Shown: positions 40,679 to 48,306, counted from the first letter of the stretch. The stretch: DNA of 64,000 nt from Oceanispirochaeta sp. (GCA_963666275.2 CAXXOA010000002.1:320001-384000); one strand, 5' to 3'. The notes: generated from the sequence alone by a model not told the origin. Program-made: numbers and translations.

Positions 40679-41974
40679 CTACCTCAGCTCCATATGGTTG
40701 AGATAGTCTGCTCTTGTAATGATCCCCAGCAGAGAGGACCCATTGGTGACAGGGATATGTCCTACATTGTATTTAAGAAAAAACCTTTCCAGGTCTTTGA
40801 CACCGTCATCCTTGCTGCAGGAGTGAACTTTTCTTGTCATATAGGATTTAACAGGAGCATTCATCTGATCGGAACGGCGGGCCTTACTAATATCCCGTAG
40901 AGTCAGAAACCCGCAGACTTCATCCTTTTCCGTGAGAACCGGAGCTCCCGTATGACCGACTTTCTCCAGAAAGAGGGACGCCTCCAGAACAGTCCAGTGA
41001 TCCCGGACACTCAGCACATCGGCTGTCATCAGATCTTCGGCTTTGATGGCAGGGCGGAGGGATTCTTTCAGACTTGATATAAACTTTTCATAGATATCCT
41101 CTCCCCACTGGCCTTTCAGCTGAGCCGAAGCCGCCCGAGTGTGCCCGCCTCCCCCGAAAGGAGAGAGAATTTCGCTGACATTAATGGATTCTTTCTGACT
41201 CCTGGCGATGATAAGGGTTTTTCTGGCTTTCTGAAGCCCGAAAAGGATAAAAATGGCATCGGCGTTTTCCACTTCAAAAACTTTTTCCACAATCGGAGCC
41301 AGACCACTGACCTGCTCTTTCATTTCAAAATAGCTGAGAATGATCGAATGACCGTGAATCTTCTTGTATACCAGCCTGTTGACCACCTGATGGAACAGGG
41401 AAATCTGATACTCCTGCTTCAGAGGTTTCAGGAACTGGCTCACAAGCTTCATATTGGCCCCCTGGGAGATCAGCCAGGAAGAGGCTTCAAAATCCTCTTT
41501 CACGACATTTTCATGAGTGAAATTCCCTGTATCCGCAAAGATACCTGTCAGACCGATGGTGGCATCCACAGGATCGATCTGCCCCCCCCTCTCTTTTATG
41601 GTCAGCGCCACAAGAGTGGTATTCGACCCGTAGGAGGCGGAGACAAGATTCGCTCCGGGGATATCGGATGTATCATTGATATGATGATCGTAAATTGTAA
41701 AAGCCCCGCTGTACTGGGGAAAAAAATCCAGATACTCCCTTATCCTGGCCCGTGACCTTGTATCAAAGATGATGAACTCGCTGACATCCTGATCCTTCAG
41801 ATCCCGTGAAGAGGTAAAATTCAGGTGATTTTTATAGAGATTGTACAAAGACTGGGCTACAGGATGCACAAGACGGCTTTTGACGATCAGAGCATCCGGA
41901 TAAAGATACTTACCAAGGGCGAGGGACCCGAAACAGTCCAGGTCCATATTTGTATGACCAATAAGCACTTTCAT
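40679..41974 (-). CDS. DHH/DHHA1 phosphoesterase with a C-terminal CBS pair
   Basis: HTNMDLDC, IFDT, YDHH, ADTGNF, GGGGHTRAAS; two CBS domains. Confidence 0.9.
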   Translation of the reverse strand: MKVLIGHTNMDLDCFGSLALGKYLYPDALIVKSRLVHPVAQSLYNLYKNHLNFTSSRDLKDQDVSEFIIFDTRSRARIREYLDFFPQYSGAFTIYDHHINDTSDIPGANLVSASYGSNTTLVALTIKERGGQIDPVDATIGLTGIFADTGNFTHENVVKEDFEASSWLISQGANMKLVSQFLKPLKQEYQISLFHQVVNRLVYKKIHGHSIILSYFEMKEQVSGLAPIVEKVFEVENADAIFILFGLQKARKTLIIARSQKESINVSEILSPFGGGGHTRAASAQLKGQWGEDIYEKFISSLKESLRPAIKAEDLMTADVLSVRDHWTVLEASLFLEKVGHTGAPVLTEKDEVCGFLTLRDISKARRSDQMNAPVKSYMTRKVHSCSKDDGVKDLERFFLKYNVGHIPVTNGSSLLGIITRADYLNHMELR

Positions 41975-42116: not shown

Positions 42117-43991
42117 TTACAGAGCCTTCTCCATAATACGATTCAGCCGCAGAGCAAAATCATGGGGATTTTTCAGGGAAGCCCCCTCAACCAGGATAGC
42201 CTGGTCCAGAAGAAGCCAGCTGATATCGTCTATGAGGTCCTTATCAGAACTCTCTTTCAGACGTCCCACAATGGCATGATCGGGATTCACTTCCAGAATC
42301 GGCTTGATTTCAGGAAGATCCGTCTGCCCCATAGCCTTGAGCATCTGCTGCATCTGAGCTGTAGGATCACTTTCGTCAGCCACAATACAGCTGGGGGATT
42401 CATGAAGTCTGCTGGATGCCACAACGTCTTTGACTGAGTCGCCCAGAGCCTCTTTGATCTTTTTCAGAAGAGGTTCAACAGATTTTTCCTTCTCCTTATC
42501 CTCTTCGGTCTTCAGATCCTCACTGCTGCCGCTTTTGTTGACAGCTTTCATCTCTTTCTCTTTGTAGGTTCCCATCATGGGCGCGACGATCTCATCAATC
42601 TCATCATCCATGATCAGAACTTCTATGCCTTTTTTCTTATAGGCTTCCAGAAGAGGTGAATTTCTCAGGGTCGTTTCATTGTCACCGGTGATGTAATAGA
42701 TCCCTTTCTGGTCATCCACCATACGGTCTACATATTCGCTCAGGCTGGTCCAGCCTTCTACACTAGTCGATTTAAACCGGACAAGCTCCATCAGCTCGTC
42801 TTTATTGGCATAGTCGGAGTAGACACCCTCTTTCAGAGGTCTGTTGTACTGTTCGATAAATTCCTTATACTCCTCCTCTTTCTGAGAAAGGGTCTTCAGT
42901 TCACTCAGGATCTTCTTCACAGAAGCATTTTTGATATTTGTCAGAACCTTGTTCTTCTGCAGAATTTCACGGCTCACATTCAGGGGAAGGTCTTCAGAAT
43001 CGATAACACCCCGGATAAACCTGAGATAGGTGGGGAGAAGCTCTTTATCGTCATCAGTGATAAAAACTCTTCTCACATAAAGTTTCACACCCGGTTTATA
43101 GTCAGCCTGATACATATCAAAGGGTGCTTTTTTAGGAATAAAGAAGAGAGTATTGTATTCGAGGGTTCCTTCCGCTCTTGTATGGATCTTGAGAAGAGGA
43201 TCTTCCATGTCATTGGATATGGACTTGTAGAATTCGCTGTACTCTTCGTCTTTCACTTCCCGGGGGGACCGTTTCCATAGGGCCGATGCAGCATTGATCT
43301 GCTCAATTTTGTCTTCTTTGATCTCTTTCCTGTCATCGCCCTCTCCCTCGTAGCGGGAGGAGGTATAGTGGAGGTGAATGGGGAAGGCAATGTGATTGGA
43401 GTATTTCTTTATTATCTGTTCCAGATCCCATTTATTGGCATACTCTTTTCCCGCATCATTCAGGTGGAGAACCACAGTGGTACCGCAACCTTCTGACCTT
43501 TCCGCTTCGTCCAGAGAGTAGCTTTCACGACCGTCGCTGCTCCATTTCCAGGCCTGATCTTCTCCGGCTTTTCTTGTGATGACATCCACATGATCGGCCA
43601 CCATGAAAATGGAATAGAAACCGACACCGAACTGACCGATAAGATTGGAATCTTTCTGGGCATCTCCGGAAAGCTTGCTCATAAAGTTCTTGGTTCCTGA
43701 GCGGGCAATTGTTCCCAGAGAATCATTAAGATCGGCATCATTCATACCGATTCCGTTGTCTTTAATGACAATCGTCTCTTTTTTATCACCCTCCAGGACA
43801 ATATCAATCCGGGGGCTCCATTCCATATCCTTGAATTTTTCATCTGTCAGGGTTAGATACTTCAACTTATCCAGAGCATCCGATGAGTTGGATATGAGCT
43901 CTCTCAGAAAGATTTCGCTATGGGAATATAAGGAGTGAATCAAAAGATCCAGGAGTTGATTCACTTCGGTTTTGAACTTTTTTTTAGACAC
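42117..43991 (-). CDS. htpG: Chaperone HtpG (Hsp90), GTG start
   Basis: YSHSEIFLRELISNSSDA, DNGIGM, IGQFGVGFYS, DLPLNVSRE. Confidence 0.98.
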   Translation of the reverse strand: MSKKKFKTEVNQLLDLLIHSLYSHSEIFLRELISNSSDALDKLKYLTLTDEKFKDMEWSPRIDIVLEGDKKETIVIKDNGIGMNDADLNDSLGTIARSGTKNFMSKLSGDAQKDSNLIGQFGVGFYSIFMVADHVDVITRKAGEDQAWKWSSDGRESYSLDEAERSEGCGTTVVLHLNDAGKEYANKWDLEQIIKKYSNHIAFPIHLHYTSSRYEGEGDDRKEIKEDKIEQINAASALWKRSPREVKDEEYSEFYKSISNDMEDPLLKIHTRAEGTLEYNTLFFIPKKAPFDMYQADYKPGVKLYVRRVFITDDDKELLPTYLRFIRGVIDSEDLPLNVSREILQKNKVLTNIKNASVKKILSELKTLSQKEEEYKEFIEQYNRPLKEGVYSDYANKDELMELVRFKSTSVEGWTSLSEYVDRMVDDQKGIYYITGDNETTLRNSPLLEAYKKKGIEVLIMDDEIDEIVAPMMGTYKEKEMKAVNKSGSSEDLKTEEDKEKEKSVEPLLKKIKEALGDSVKDVVASSRLHESPSCIVADESDPTAQMQQMLKAMGQTDLPEIKPILEVNPDHAIVGRLKESSDKDLIDDISWLLLDQAILVEGASLKNPHDFALRLNRIMEKAL

Positions 43992-44222
43992 CTGAGAATC
44001 TCCTTGTTAACAGTGGAATTTTGTGACTATAAAATAATAAGAATCATAAAAAGGGACAACGAAAAAATTCGATTTTTAACTTTCATGTAAAAAAGCCCGA
44101 TTATTCCTCTAAATACAGGAAATACTGACAGTTATGGTTTATGATTAATGAGGAATCACTTTCATTCCTGCTGGGGAAGAAATCCTGCCCGTAAGGGATA
44201 ATCAGTTTACAGGGGCAATTGA

Positions 44223-45740
44223 TTATTCCGCTAACGTGATCGCTTTCCAGACTTTATTGTCGAAAAAGGCATCCACTTCCAAGGGCGGAAGATCTTCCCC
44301 TCTCATTTTCATGATAATTGATTTAGCCTTCTCAAAATCCAGAGCACTCCGGTAGGGACGGTCTGTTGTGAGAGCATCCCAGACATCACAGACCGACAGG
44401 ATTCTGGCAATCCGGGGAATACTGTCTTTTTCAAGTCCCTCGGGATATCCCTTACCGTTGAATTTCTCATGATGGTAGTACGCAGCCAGGATCACCTGAT
44501 CAAGATTGAGAAGACCGTCGAGGATTTCAATCCCCTGAACAGGGTGTTTTTTCATGACCCTGTACTCATCATCATTCAGAGGCCCATCCTTGTGAAGGAC
44601 ATCCTCGGGTACACCTATCTTTCCTATATCGTGAAGCTCTCCAGCCAGAAAGACAATTTCCTGCTCTTTTTTCTTCATTCCCAGCGCGGCAGCCAGGGCT
44701 TTCCCGTAAACTGCCACATGGACAGAGTGCTCCCTTGTGTAGGAGTCCCGTTCATCAAGAGCTCTGGCAAGAGTTTTCAGCACACCGGAAAATTCAAGAT
44801 TGTATTTTCTGATAACCCAGCTGATAAAGAGATTCATAAATGACATGGCGGCAAAGAATATCAGGGAGATATAGAGAGACTGCCTGTGAACCTGCCTTAC
44901 CGGCTCCGAATTGTCCACAAAAAAGAGGGCGCTCCCGGACTCCTCCATAAGGATTTCATCCTGTCTGATTTCTGAGATTCTCTCTTCTCTGTTTATATAG
45001 GTTGTATCTTCCATCTGAAAATAGAGAAGATCCTCATGTTCCTGAATAAATAGTCTGATTTTCTCCGGCCCGGGAGATGTGGCGGCCAGAACCTGGGCCT
45101 GAATGAAATCCGGAGAAACGGGAACTGTCTGCAGAATGCCCAGTCCGGAAATCATTATGTAGAGGAAAAGAAAGCTAATCATGGTACCATAGGAAATGAT
45201 TGTCTCAATTTTTTCCCAGATCTGAACCCTCTCCTTTCCCGTGAGCCTTTTGACAATACTCTGAGTCATCAGGCGGTCACCCCGATCCGTCGAAGCCCCT
45301 GTAAAAACGGCAATGAGAGCGGAAAGATGATCCGAAAGGAAGACCCTCAGGATCCTCATCATCCTTCCCAGCCGGGACACCAGGCGGATAAGGCGCATCA
45401 GCCTCATGGGAATGAGGGGAAACAGGGTATCCATATGAAGAAACAGGCCGTTTACAAACCAGTTCATATCCAGAAGCATTGTCAGATTGGCTGCAAGGAA
45501 AACCCAGAAGGTGAGCCTTTTATACCAGTCCCGATAGGCGATGGCGGTCAGAATCAGCTCCGACATGAGGAACAGAAAAGCCAGGGACATAAGAATTTCA
45601 AGTACCGGATCCGATGCAGGACTCAACCAGCCCTTGATGATATCTGTGAGGAAAACTGAGACAAGGACAAAAATGATAAGGATAGAACGGTATAGAGAAG
45701 AATCGAGAATTTTACGGCAAAAAAGAGAGACTCTCTTCAT
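44223..45740 (-). CDS. HD-GYP phosphodiesterase with an N-terminal voltage-sensor-like six-TM module
   Basis: S4-like RLMRLIRLVSRLGRMMRILR; HD-GYP motifs YTREHS, LHDIGK, HHEKFNGKGYP, DVWDALTTDRPYR. Confidence 0.85.
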   Translation of the reverse strand: MKRVSLFCRKILDSSLYRSILIIFVLVSVFLTDIIKGWLSPASDPVLEILMSLAFLFLMSELILTAIAYRDWYKRLTFWVFLAANLTMLLDMNWFVNGLFLHMDTLFPLIPMRLMRLIRLVSRLGRMMRILRVFLSDHLSALIAVFTGASTDRGDRLMTQSIVKRLTGKERVQIWEKIETIISYGTMISFLFLYIMISGLGILQTVPVSPDFIQAQVLAATSPGPEKIRLFIQEHEDLLYFQMEDTTYINREERISEIRQDEILMEESGSALFFVDNSEPVRQVHRQSLYISLIFFAAMSFMNLFISWVIRKYNLEFSGVLKTLARALDERDSYTREHSVHVAVYGKALAAALGMKKKEQEIVFLAGELHDIGKIGVPEDVLHKDGPLNDDEYRVMKKHPVQGIEILDGLLNLDQVILAAYYHHEKFNGKGYPEGLEKDSIPRIARILSVCDVWDALTTDRPYRSALDFEKAKSIIMKMRGEDLPPLEVDAFFDNKVWKAITLAE

Positions 45741-45876
45741 GATTTATAATTCTTGCTTCCCGCCAAATAGCTGTCAAGTGAAAATAAATCTTGAAATAAA
45801 CAGATAATTAAGAAATAATCTTTTCTATGGATGACTCAGACCCTTTTTTATACCTTTTATCTCGGAAAAATAGCAG

Positions 45877-47121
45877 ATGACCTTTGAAATTCTCCTGTTA
45901 TTTCTCCTTTTCTCCCTTTCAGCAATTTTTTCAGCAACAGAAACTGCCTTTACCTCACTATCAACTCTTCAGATCCACAATATCATGGAAAAAGGCGGGA
46001 GAAGAGGCAGGGAAGTAAACAAACTGGCACGAAAGCCGGATGTCCTTCTCACCACGCTCCTTATCGGGAACAACCTGGCGAACATAGGTGCCACAGCCCT
46101 TGTCACCTCTCTGACGATCCGTCTTTTCGGCTCACAGACAGTGGCGGTAATGACGGGCCTGCTGACCCTGTTTGTTCTTATCTTCGGAGAAGTCACTCCC
46201 AAACAGATTGCTCTGGCAAAAAATGAAGCCATCTGTCTCAACATGGCCTATCCAATTTACTGGCTCTCCACAGTATTCCGCCCTTTCATCTGGATCATTT
46301 CCACGATCAGCTCTGTCATAACCAGGCTCTTTTCAGGAAAGGAACAGAAAACCCTGACCATTGAAAACCTCCTGCAGATGGTGAGGATCGGTGAAAACAT
46401 TGGTATCGTAGAAACCTATGAAAAAGAGATGGTGCAGAATGTTTTCAGGATAAACAATACTCCCGTCAAAGGGATCACCACCTACAGAACCAATGTTTTC
46501 TGCCTGGATAAGGAATCCTATATTGAAGATGTTCTGGATGAAATCATGGATCACGGATTTTCGAGGATACCCGTTTACGAGGAAAATTCCGAGCACATAG
46601 TTGGGATCGTCCTTATGCATGACATAATGAGAGCCATTTCCTCTGGAGAAAAAGCCTTCAAACTGAAAGAAAAAATGGTGGAACCTCTCTTCATACCCGA
46701 AACAAGGATGGTCCACGACCTGTTCCTCTACTTTAAAAAAGAAAAACTAAATATGGCTGTCGTCCTGGATGAATACGGGGGATTAACCGGTATTGTTACA
46801 AAGGAAGATGTCATAGAGGAAATCTTCGGCGAACTCTACGATGAGAATGAAGAGAAAGAGGCGGACAAGATCATTTCCCGGGGAGTCCGGGAGTGGCTGA
46901 TACAGGGTGACAGCTCCTTCTATCTGATTCAGGACAAGCTTGGCATCAACCTGGAGCACGATCAGAGAACCCTCACAGTAGGAGGTTACCTGATTGAAAA
47001 GCTCGGAGAAATACCTGAAGAGGGTACCACATTGAAAATGCCCGAAGGGACCTATGTGATAGGAAAGGTCAGTCAGAACAGAATTGAAGAAGTGGTATTC
47101 CGTCAGTCAGAAGAGAGTTAG
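45877..47121 (+). CDS. CNNM/HlyC-CorC family membrane protein (DUF21-CBS-CorC)
   Basis: FSATETA, LIGNNLAN, FGEVTPK, FSRIPVY, VLDEYGG. Confidence 0.93.
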   Translation: MTFEILLLFLLFSLSAIFSATETAFTSLSTLQIHNIMEKGGRRGREVNKLARKPDVLLTTLLIGNNLANIGATALVTSLTIRLFGSQTVAVMTGLLTLFVLIFGEVTPKQIALAKNEAICLNMAYPIYWLSTVFRPFIWIISTISSVITRLFSGKEQKTLTIENLLQMVRIGENIGIVETYEKEMVQNVFRINNTPVKGITTYRTNVFCLDKESYIEDVLDEIMDHGFSRIPVYEENSEHIVGIVLMHDIMRAISSGEKAFKLKEKMVEPLFIPETRMVHDLFLYFKKEKLNMAVVLDEYGGLTGIVTKEDVIEEIFGELYDENEEKEADKIISRGVREWLIQGDSSFYLIQDKLGINLEHDQRTLTVGGYLIEKLGEIPEEGTTLKMPEGTYVIGKVSQNRIEEVVFRQSEES

Positions 47122-48306
47122 CTGTCTCGAATCCTCCGGCCGCTGAACCCCGGCAACGGTTCGGCCTCCGTATTGATGGGAGACCCGCCTTTCATAGGCC
47201 ATCACTTTTTCGGGATCAGCTTCCACCTTTTCCATCTTTTCGATGTACAGCTGAAGCTGATGGAGTTTTTTCAGCCCCATCCGTTTCTCATCCCTGGGAA
47301 GAGAACTTTTCTGAACAGTCCCCGACAGGGTCTGAATGGTCCTGTCGTAAACCTTGAGTGGAACAGGAAAAGGATGCCCGTCCTTTCCTCCGTGGGCAAA
47401 AGAGAACCTTGCGGGATCTTCAAACCGGGCTGGTTCACCGTAGATGACTTCACTGACCAGGGCCAGGGACTGTAGGGTTCTCGGCCCCAGACCTTCCACA
47501 AGAAGGAGTTCGGAAAAGGTTTTTACTCCCCGTTCAGAAGCGACTGCCAGGACGGCGCCCAATCGCTTCGGATCCACATCTTCGTTTCTGACATTGTGCC
47601 GTGAAGGCATGAGCAGATGCCGCAGCTCCCTGGTCTGCTCCCCCGAAGTGCGGCCTGAAAAATCCAGAATGGCATCCCGGGCTTTCTCGGCTCTGGTTTC
47701 ACTCAGATTCACGAGCATTCCCTGATTGATTCCCGAGATTCCCGAGTGGGGATTCCGGACAAAAGACTTCACTCCCGGAGAGTGCCAGTGATACCGCCTT
47801 GCCATTCCGGCTCTGTCGTTCATCCCCTGCTGAACCACGGCCCACTCCCCCTCTCTGGTGAGGATAAAGTTATGAAGGTATATCTGGAAACCATCCTGAA
47901 TACAGGTATTATCCACTTTTGCACTCAGCCGGGAAGCCGCGACAAGATCCTCACCGTTCAAGCCCTCTTTTCCTGAAATACTCCGGATCTCATCCGGAGT
48001 CATCCGGGAGTACCGGCCTCTGCCGCCGCAGATATAGATTCCCAGCTCCCGGGAGAGAGGATTGATTCCCTTTTTCAGGGCTCCCATGACACTGGTTGTG
48101 ATTCCCGAAGAGTGCCAGTCCATCCCCATGACACAACCAAGGGCCTGAAACCAGAAGGGATCGCTCAGCCGGCTTAAAAAAGCGGAGGGCCCCTGTTCTT
48201 CCACCATAATTCTTACGATTTCTCTCCCCAGAAGGGCCATCCTTTCAGAAAGCCACCGGGGGACCCTGCCGTAATGAAGAGGCAGGTCTGCTGTTCCGCT
48301 TTTCAT
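47107..48306 (-). CDS. DUF763 family protein
   Basis: ADLPLHYG, DPFWFQALGCVMGMDWHSSG, ARRYHW, FSFAHGGKDGHPFPV. Confidence 0.9.
   Translation of the reverse strand: MKSGTADLPLHYGRVPRWLSERMALLGREIVRIMVEEQGPSAFLSRLSDPFWFQALGCVMGMDWHSSGITTSVMGALKKGINPLSRELGIYICGGRGRYSRMTPDEIRSISGKEGLNGEDLVAASRLSAKVDNTCIQDGFQIYLHNFILTREGEWAVVQQGMNDRAGMARRYHWHSPGVKSFVRNPHSGISGINQGMLVNLSETRAEKARDAILDFSGRTSGEQTRELRHLLMPSRHNVRNEDVDPKRLGAVLAVASERGVKTFSELLLVEGLGPRTLQSLALVSEVIYGEPARFEDPARFSFAHGGKDGHPFPVPLKVYDRTIQTLSGTVQKSSLPRDEKRMGLKKLHQLQLYIEKMEKVEADPEKVMAYERRVSHQYGGRTVAGVQRPEDSRQLTLF

Follow-up and report, generated by a model that had tools for sequence, protein, structure and literature searches.

In voltage-sensing phosphatases (VSPs), the S4 helix is joined directly to a PTEN-like phosphatase; Ci-VSP (4g7v) combines a pore-less S1–S4 sensor and an enzyme in one chain. 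The adenylyl cyclases of the AC-alpha type found in protists (ciliates, apicomplexans and stramenopiles) have an S1–S4 sensor, a fifth transmembrane helix (TM5), a small external domain, a sixth helix (TM6), and then a helix and a cyclic-nucleotide enzyme, with no conventional pore. Earlier work on such cyclases is said to include that of Weber et al. (2004) and Schultz (1992). Bacterial HD-GYP phosphodiesterases are known with the membrane sensors MASE9–MASE12, and their catalytic domain and motifs are exemplified, with a signalling helix in front, by PmGH (4mcw), V-cGAP3 and PA4781. The AC-alpha family has been called restricted to protozoans (excerpts of PMC12414865) and restricted to Stramenopiles and Alveolates (excerpts of PMC12223298). 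In Paramecium, hyperpolarisation raises cAMP, AC1/AC2 knockdown removes this response, and the two cyclases are needed for fast swimming, as reported in part of PMC10587447; for recombinant protist cyclases, voltage dependence is described as not definitively characterised in the available text of PMC10651576.

Here we describe a bacterial protein that brings these elements together. A 64,000-nucleotide stretch of the genome of an Oceanispirochaeta, a free-living spirochaete (the window, to which coordinates refer unless another sequence is named) contains, on the minus strand at 44223–45740, an open reading frame with an ATG start that encodes a 505-residue protein, P0001, composed of a voltage-sensor module and an HD-GYP phosphodiesterase. 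Like Ci-VSP, P0001 has a pore-less S1–S4 unit and an enzyme in a single chain, but it differs from VSPs in that two extra helices plus an external domain separate its sensor from its enzyme, and in lacking a counterpart of VSP D186. It has the six-helix layout of AC-alpha, whereas its host is bacterial, its output is HD-GYP with no class III cyclase domain, it has no GxG after TM6, the Asp of S3 is lost and S4 is more hydrophobic. We read P0001 as a putative membrane-bound phosphodiesterase for c-di-GMP, which in bacteria signals for motility or biofilm, with an activity that would be set wholly or partly by membrane potential, and give this reading a probability of about one half.

The voltage-sensor domain (VSD) spans residues 15–133 (45342–45698, minus strand), as delimited by an AlphaFold2 model, the match to Ci-VSP and conservation, and is preceded by an amphipathic S0 helix at residues 2–13. 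The model of residues 1–315, built on a 102-row alignment, has a pLDDT of 88.9 and a pTM of 0.83 and places helices at 15–38, 41–68, 76–91, 93–100 and 112–147, the last being a long S4 helix. Searching 48,161 PDB representatives with VIA-align returned the Ci-VSP sensor as the best match (Z 11.8, rmsd 2.9 over 129 residues), and every one of the top 36 rows was a protein containing S1–S4, with around 100–140 residues aligned. Because Z values under about 13 may reflect helical bundles in general, the fold assignment rests on the uniformity of the top rows together with an independent family-profile match to Nav1.7 (E 3e-5). For the N-terminal model, the Foldseek matches listed were all voltage-gated-family channels, the best at E 0.018 and none at E ≤ 0.001. 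Single-sequence methods saw little of this: Pfam Ion_trans reached only E 5–9 in P0001, a PDB sequence search gave nothing meaningful for the sensor, a 12-row bacterial profile had no match in the PDB, and the ESM Atlas held no usable match for residues 1–315. The fold match, best to Ci-VSP, and a model pLDDT of around 89 nevertheless bear out the four-helix VSD at residues ~15–135 proposed in a preliminary description of this DNA, and none of the structural claims made there fell to the refuting conditions it had set.

The S4 helix (45342–45407, minus strand; assigned from sequence and conservation) carries seven Arg residues with a spacing of 3, 3, 4, 3, 3 and 3, confirming the earlier assignment to positions 113, 116, 119, 123, 126, 129 and 132, which fall at nucleotides 45345–45404 by arithmetic from the start codon. 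S4-like runs with at least seven charges occurred in none of 20,000 shuffles of P0001 (36 had at least five) and in just 2 of 10,141 six-frame open reading frames of its own genome, the second being a distant paralogue of the module; the run is therefore not a product of chance. All 19 family rows have Arg at positions 119, 123, 126 and 129, and all seven charge positions are basic in nearly all 19 members, which are mostly just 21–39% identical to P0001 in the N terminus. Across the 16 full-length members, mean pairwise identity is 57% in S4 versus 18–44% in the other elements of the membrane module. The lower part of S4, SRLGRMMRILR (ARLGRLLRIIK in relatives), is closely similar to ARIGRILRLVK in S4 of Nav1.7 domain IV. 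P0001 shares the S0–S4 fold, the S2 F/L-x-x-E pattern and the S4 periodicity with NavAb, Nav1.7, Kv and HCN channels.

The acidic residues of the VSD are D33 (S1), D44, E48 and E61 (all S2) and D91 (S3); D33 and E61 do not vary in any of the 19 family rows. E61, the inner acid of S2, aligns with the Glu of IFILE in Nav1.7, the position of Shaker E293 and Ci-VSP D164. The S2 segment FLFLMSE, previously taken as a hallmark of the sensor, is indeed present, starting at position 55, but the charge-transfer site (Shaker F290, Ci-VSP F161), placed at position 58 by alignment to Nav1.7, is Leu rather than Phe in P0001, with Phe57 adjacent; 13 of the 19 members have Phe at 58. Mutations of F161 hardly alter Ci-VSP, according to excerpts of PMC3440755. 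S3 likewise carries the LLD noted before, at position 89, but D91 is the outer S3 acid, and the inner S3 Asp (Shaker D316, Ci-VSP D186), at position 81 in alignment with WLD of Nav1.7, is replaced by Phe. This inner position, described as a conserved Asp in VSPs and Shaker in part of PMC3440755, is acidic in 0 of 19 family rows versus D/E in 83 of 83 other relatives. Its loss throughout the family counts against simple voltage gating, and the Leu at the charge-transfer position of P0001 counts against a voltage reading too. The S1–S4 unit of P0001 is thus a voltage-sensor fold but a non-canonical sensor, which may work over a different range or have taken on another role. We considered E179, the first residue of TM5, as compensation for the missing Asp and dropped it, because D/E stands at the next column in 50 of the 83 other relatives.

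Beyond S4, the model runs as a helix into TM5, followed by an alpha/beta domain at 210–276 and a TM6 helix at 278–314. The S4–TM5 linker (residues 134–172; 45225–45341, minus strand) is modelled as cytoplasmic and helical and is basic; being long and variable (22% identity), it is unlike a tight coupling element, which also counts against the voltage reading. By hydropathy and the model, TM5 covers residues ~179–203 (45132–45206, minus strand), beginning at the family-invariant E179, and TM6 covers residues ~288–312 (44805–44879, minus strand). Between them lies a small alpha/beta domain (residues 204–285; 44886–45131, minus strand), predicted to be extracytoplasmic from the topology. Modelled with a pLDDT of 96–97 over residues 211–270, it consists of two helices, a beta-hairpin, a short helix and a second beta-hairpin, an element order like that of the PAS-like Cache/PDC fold but with four strands, and it is acidic, with 16 D/E versus 7 K/R. 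What had been described as a soluble loop containing IRQDE and flanked by transmembrane helices does contain this motif, at 258, but folds in the model into an external domain some 80 residues long. It is among the least conserved parts of the protein (23% identity across the 16 full-length members), and it has no Pfam or PDB-sequence match and, over residues 200–290, no usable ESM Atlas match; R259, E262 and D276 are its conserved residues.

A transmembrane helix, an external domain, a second transmembrane helix, a helix and an enzyme, in that order, make up the usual bacterial receptor layout. Loss of the S3 Asp, together with the conserved external domain, leaves room for another input. The external domain could be the real input, reading a small molecule, an ion or pH, with S1–S4 serving as a modulator or as a scaffold that stays fixed in a single state over the potentials found in bacteria. 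The conservation of R259 and E262 (both in 18 of 19 family rows; among the 83 other relatives, 61 share R259 and 20 have a gap at its column) fits a ligand or structural role and to that extent counts against voltage. However, at 23% identity the domain is poorly conserved in comparison with S4, the best-conserved element of the membrane module; it matches no ligand-binding family; and a single sequence on a 2.3-kb contig (P0160), possibly an assembly error, is missing most of the domain and keeps both S4 and HD-GYP. We consider control by the external domain in place of voltage unlikely, and the domain may instead supply a second input to a voltage-controlled enzyme.

The module is shared well beyond HD-GYP proteins. 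A search of 1.84 billion representatives with a 4-row profile yielded 175 matches, and among the 150 listed, other enzymes or domains were Guanylate_cyc (22), PDEase_I (7), GAF (5) and RGS (4), with no GGDEF, EAL or kinase family. A survey for the module on other output domains, as suggested in the preliminary description for GGDEF or cyclases, succeeded for cyclases and, among these 150 of 175 matches, not for GGDEF. Because the same module sits on cyclase, class I phosphodiesterase, GAF and RGS domains, it appears to be a portable input module. In these relatives Pfam Ion_trans covers the S1–S4 part only, its matches ending by model position 133 of 241. Protist-like relatives with RGS (P0017, P0037, P0038 and P0059), GAF (P0018 and P0020) or class I phosphodiesterase domains (P0087, P0108 and P0153) are further candidate voltage-linked signalling proteins.

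Cyclase-type relatives were found with profile matches down to E 1.7e-13, colinear along the whole module. The half after S4 alone aligned to theirs with HHalign at 98.3% (E 1e-14; reversed control 7.5%), using 18 versus 55 rows, both cut from one joint alignment, and the external domain is homologous in the protist-type relatives. From their architecture, with Ion_trans over S1–S4, Guanylate_cyc, GxG after TM6 and, in P0106, a TPR tail, the cyclase-type relatives are most likely the AC-alpha family. On these alignments the six-helix module of P0001 is homologous to that of the protist voltage-sensor adenylyl cyclases, and the likeness in layout to ciliate and apicomplexan cyclases that was first noted is borne out. 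Searching the PDB by profile and by fold turned up no close solved structure for a module of the AC-alpha type, and excerpts of PMC12223298 likewise describe none.

The genome of P0001 also encodes a distant paralogue without an enzyme, P0161, outside the window (L010:1986–3101, minus strand, equivalent to G000:C1:2580985–2582100). It has an S4 with eight charges, the S3 Asp, the external domain, TM6 and a short HAMP-like tail, recognized as HAMP by eye with no Pfam match. Its alignment with the P0001-type module covers 288 columns at 98.1%, and the half after S4 scores 85.5% versus 5.7% for the control. Such enzyme-less modules occur in 73 of the 301 Spirochaetota genomes, a set of 1.0–1.8 Mb genomes among them; the module is thus firmly established among spirochaetes and extends beyond protists. 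Throughout this enzyme-less spirochaete family the inner S3 Asp is invariant, and in 25 of 30 loci the gene lies downstream of one conserved gene of around 305 codons for an unknown protein.

A widespread enzyme-less module found behind one partner gene suggests that the module can act through partners, and this, with the altered set of counter-charges in P0001, is consistent with an S1–S4 unit that senses lipid, membrane tension or pH, or that anchors the enzyme to another membrane protein as partner, its Arg residues kept for folding or binding. We think such a role distinctly improbable, as it sits poorly with seven basic residues in gating periodicity and acids in S1 and S2 kept over long distances, and no partner is conserved beside the P0001 gene beyond genus-level synteny.

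It is less probable still that the module conducts ions or protons, either through the sensor, in the manner of Hv1, or along an unconventional route of the sort claimed for the Paramecium cyclase, with the enzyme coupled to the conductance. A K+ conductance has been reported for the Paramecium cyclase (excerpts of PMC12414865 and PMC10587447), and the invariant S1 Asp D33 could be read in the same direction, but D33 aligns with an acid at the outer end of Nav S1. The motifs T.GYG, T.GFG and GYGD are absent from P0001, in agreement with the preliminary description, and from all 160 proteins examined. Hv1 carries a Trp in S4 that P0001 lacks. Structural alignments cover the sensor alone, with no match to a pore, and in place of the pore helix and selectivity filter of six-helix channels the TM5–TM6 segment models as a soluble alpha/beta domain. 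The GxG after TM6 described for AC-alpha and proposed as its pore in the available text of PMC3283738 is present, as G[FY]G, in 15 of 20 cyclase-type relatives but is missing from P0001 and from all 15 HD-GYP members. Two Phytophthora members of the AC-alpha family (PPTG_13136 and PPTG_13761) are described as lacking a pore helix in part of PMC12223298. As modelled, TM5 and TM6 are the flanks of the external domain, as in two-helix bacterial receptors, and not a pore.

Leading from TM6 into the enzyme, a signalling helix (residues 314–331; 44748–44801, minus strand) is the most conserved segment of P0001, with 72.5% mean pairwise identity across the 16 full-length members; such helices often precede HD-GYP domains, as noted in excerpts of Galperin and Chou (bioRxiv 10.1101/2021.11.05.467447). 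The HD-GYP domain itself spans residues 332–495 (44256–44747, minus strand), as defined by Pfam HD_5 (residues 323–482, E 1.1e-34), alignment to PmGH and Foldseek. Sequence and fold comparisons with the PDB both rank PmGH (4mcw) first (E 3.7e-37; Foldseek top match). The residues D332, Y334, H338, H370, D371, K374, K384 (the Lys of KPG), H399, H423, H424, E425, G431-Y432-P433, D452 and R461-x-Y-R464 are kept in 17 of 17 members covering the domain, except K374 in 16 of 17. The HD, HHE and GYP motifs said earlier to be kept are in place at 370, 423 and 431; the HD dyad and HHExxxGxGYP align to PmGH, as do H338, H399 and D452, which we take to be metal ligands. The predicted phosphodiesterase site is intact.

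At the position of PmGH E185, P0001 differs in having Tyr334, as do 17 of 17 members, which sets it apart from the trinuclear (E185) subclass. A Tyr here marks the binuclear HD-GYP class, usually stopping at pGpG, and RxY[K/R], present as R461-P-Y-R464, specifies c-di-GMP (both from excerpts of bioRxiv 10.1101/2021.11.05.467447). Judged by these residues, the HD-GYP domain of P0001 belongs to the binuclear class and its product is probably pGpG. A working sensor with an output other than c-di-GMP hydrolysis, whether as a c-di-GMP receptor or as a hydrolase of cGAMP or pGpG, is the reading we rate lowest: there are HD-GYP proteins that hydrolyse cGAMP or work through interaction (excerpts of the same preprint), and V-cGAP3 is the second-best PDB sequence match of the enzyme, but all 17 members have an intact set of metal-site and substrate residues, and RxY[K/R] is present.

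The family is small. One-sequence and profile searches found about 20 sequences that share the N terminus of P0001, of which 16, complete or almost complete, carry HD-GYP. Of 38 genomes of the order, 3 have the gene, and these belong to a single genus; it is missing from 8 of 10 other genomes of that genus, a rarity that counts against the voltage reading. It was not found in 400 other sampled Spirochaetota genomes, and a class-level sample of 401 added solely a 47-residue remnant in another Spirochaetia family (G603, L007:1429–1641), which comprises S2–S3 only and has no adjoining S4 or enzyme. In an HD-GYP tree, the 16 full-length members form one clade relative to 19 paralogues from the P0001 genome (support 0.99), and in a module tree, for which 79 of 102 rows with under 25% gaps were kept, the family is one clade on a long branch (support 1.0). 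With both the enzyme domains and the membrane modules forming one clade, a single fusion that has been long maintained is indicated; both trees were built with FastTree and midpoint-rooted and are silent on the direction of transfer. Among 7,999 scored candidates there was no longer fused form (589–2000 residues), which is weak evidence. A further sequence, P0006, has kept the module and lost HD-GYP nearly wholly except for an RGEDLPP tail; it lies on a short contig and may be an assembly error.

The nearest named relative of P0001 is from an Oceanispirochaeta metagenome-assembled genome, with 70% identity over residues 1–315 and shared gene order; orthologues in the same gene slot have N-terminal identities of 70% and 56%. 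The gene forms a divergent pair with that of a CNNM/CBS/CorC protein (45877–47121, plus strand), beyond which lies a DUF763 gene (47107–48306, minus strand); on the other side are htpG, encoding Hsp90 (42117–43991, minus strand), and a gene for a DHH-CBS protein (40679–41974, minus strand). A sigma-70-like promoter match, TTGACA-17-AAGAAT (45749–45777, minus strand), ends 9 nucleotides upstream of the ATG; it comes from a consensus scan only, with 10 of 12 positions matching and a background of 8 sites in the region versus 3.0 expected. We rejected a functional link to the neighbouring genes, the htpG–CNNM slot holding other genes or nothing in 5 of 5 gene-lacking genomes of the genus that were checked: a different gene of around 230 codons (G007 and G010), ABC-permease-like genes (G005) or no gene (G002 and G008). 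Base composition gave no signal of recent transfer, the GC (0.47) and GC3 (0.54) of the P0001 gene being like those of its neighbours.

Other features of the region and genome were noted in passing. A conserved DNA element at around 44140–44310 (minus strand) overlaps the 3′ end of the P0001 gene and lies upstream of htpG, with the pattern AGGGGAAGATCTTC ... TGCCCC ... CTTCCCC.GCAGGAATGAAAGTGATTC. It is found in 7 of 7 aligned genomes of the genus, including 4 without the P0001 gene, and may be a stub of the deleted P0001-type gene retained as a regulatory element of htpG; it has no Rfam match and a weak consensus fold. An ordinary cyclic-nucleotide-gated K+ channel gene, with Ion_trans, a cNMP-binding domain and a TTIGYGD filter, runs into the start of the window (1–~1240, plus strand; L009:2865–4241), and a Kv-like channel with TVGYGD is encoded at L011:2186–3013.

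We return to P0001 as a phosphodiesterase under the control of membrane potential. This reading is supported by the VSD fold, the conserved S4 charges, the joint retention of sensor and enzyme, the portability of the module, the 62 GGDEF matches in the host genome (which has 19 other HD-GYP-like open reading frames) and the Paramecium precedent. S4 would move in the field, and its movement would pass through the S4–TM5 linker and TM5 to TM6. The helix continuing TM6 would then re-orient the HD-GYP domains, probably as a dimer, and so switch hydrolysis of c-di-GMP, most likely to pGpG. A homodimer prediction for the N-terminal module scored 0.36 against a mark of 0.42. If the polarity of the Paramecium cyclase were to hold, with more output on hyperpolarisation, an energised membrane might, more speculatively, lower c-di-GMP and favour swimming.

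From its sequence, P0001 is a real, new form of putative voltage-sensing enzyme, with a bacterial second messenger as its likely output. Full-text searches, mostly of literature outside subscription journals, found no report of an S4 voltage sensor joined to a c-di-GMP enzyme, and neither 'voltage' nor 'ion channel' appears in the available main text of an HD-GYP architecture survey (bioRxiv 10.1101/2021.11.05.467447). As a single chain of 505 residues with a simple enzymatic read-out, P0001 opens voltage control over a bacterial second messenger to direct testing, and if the gating is real it could be used as a voltage-to-c-di-GMP reporter. For the AC-alpha module of protists it provides a compact, intron-free model, and its predicted structure argues that helices 5 and 6 of AC-alpha are receptor helices rather than a pore. 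This is relevant to the long-standing claim of K+ channel activity in the Paramecium cyclase itself. How bacteria read membrane potential into behaviour is a largely open question, and one that P0001 touches. Tentatively, we would see in it a bacterial voltage-gated enzyme that turns potential directly into c-di-GMP level, built on a module that may be an old bacterial sensing device, common across spirochaetes in its enzyme-less form and outfitted differently in the protist cyclases.
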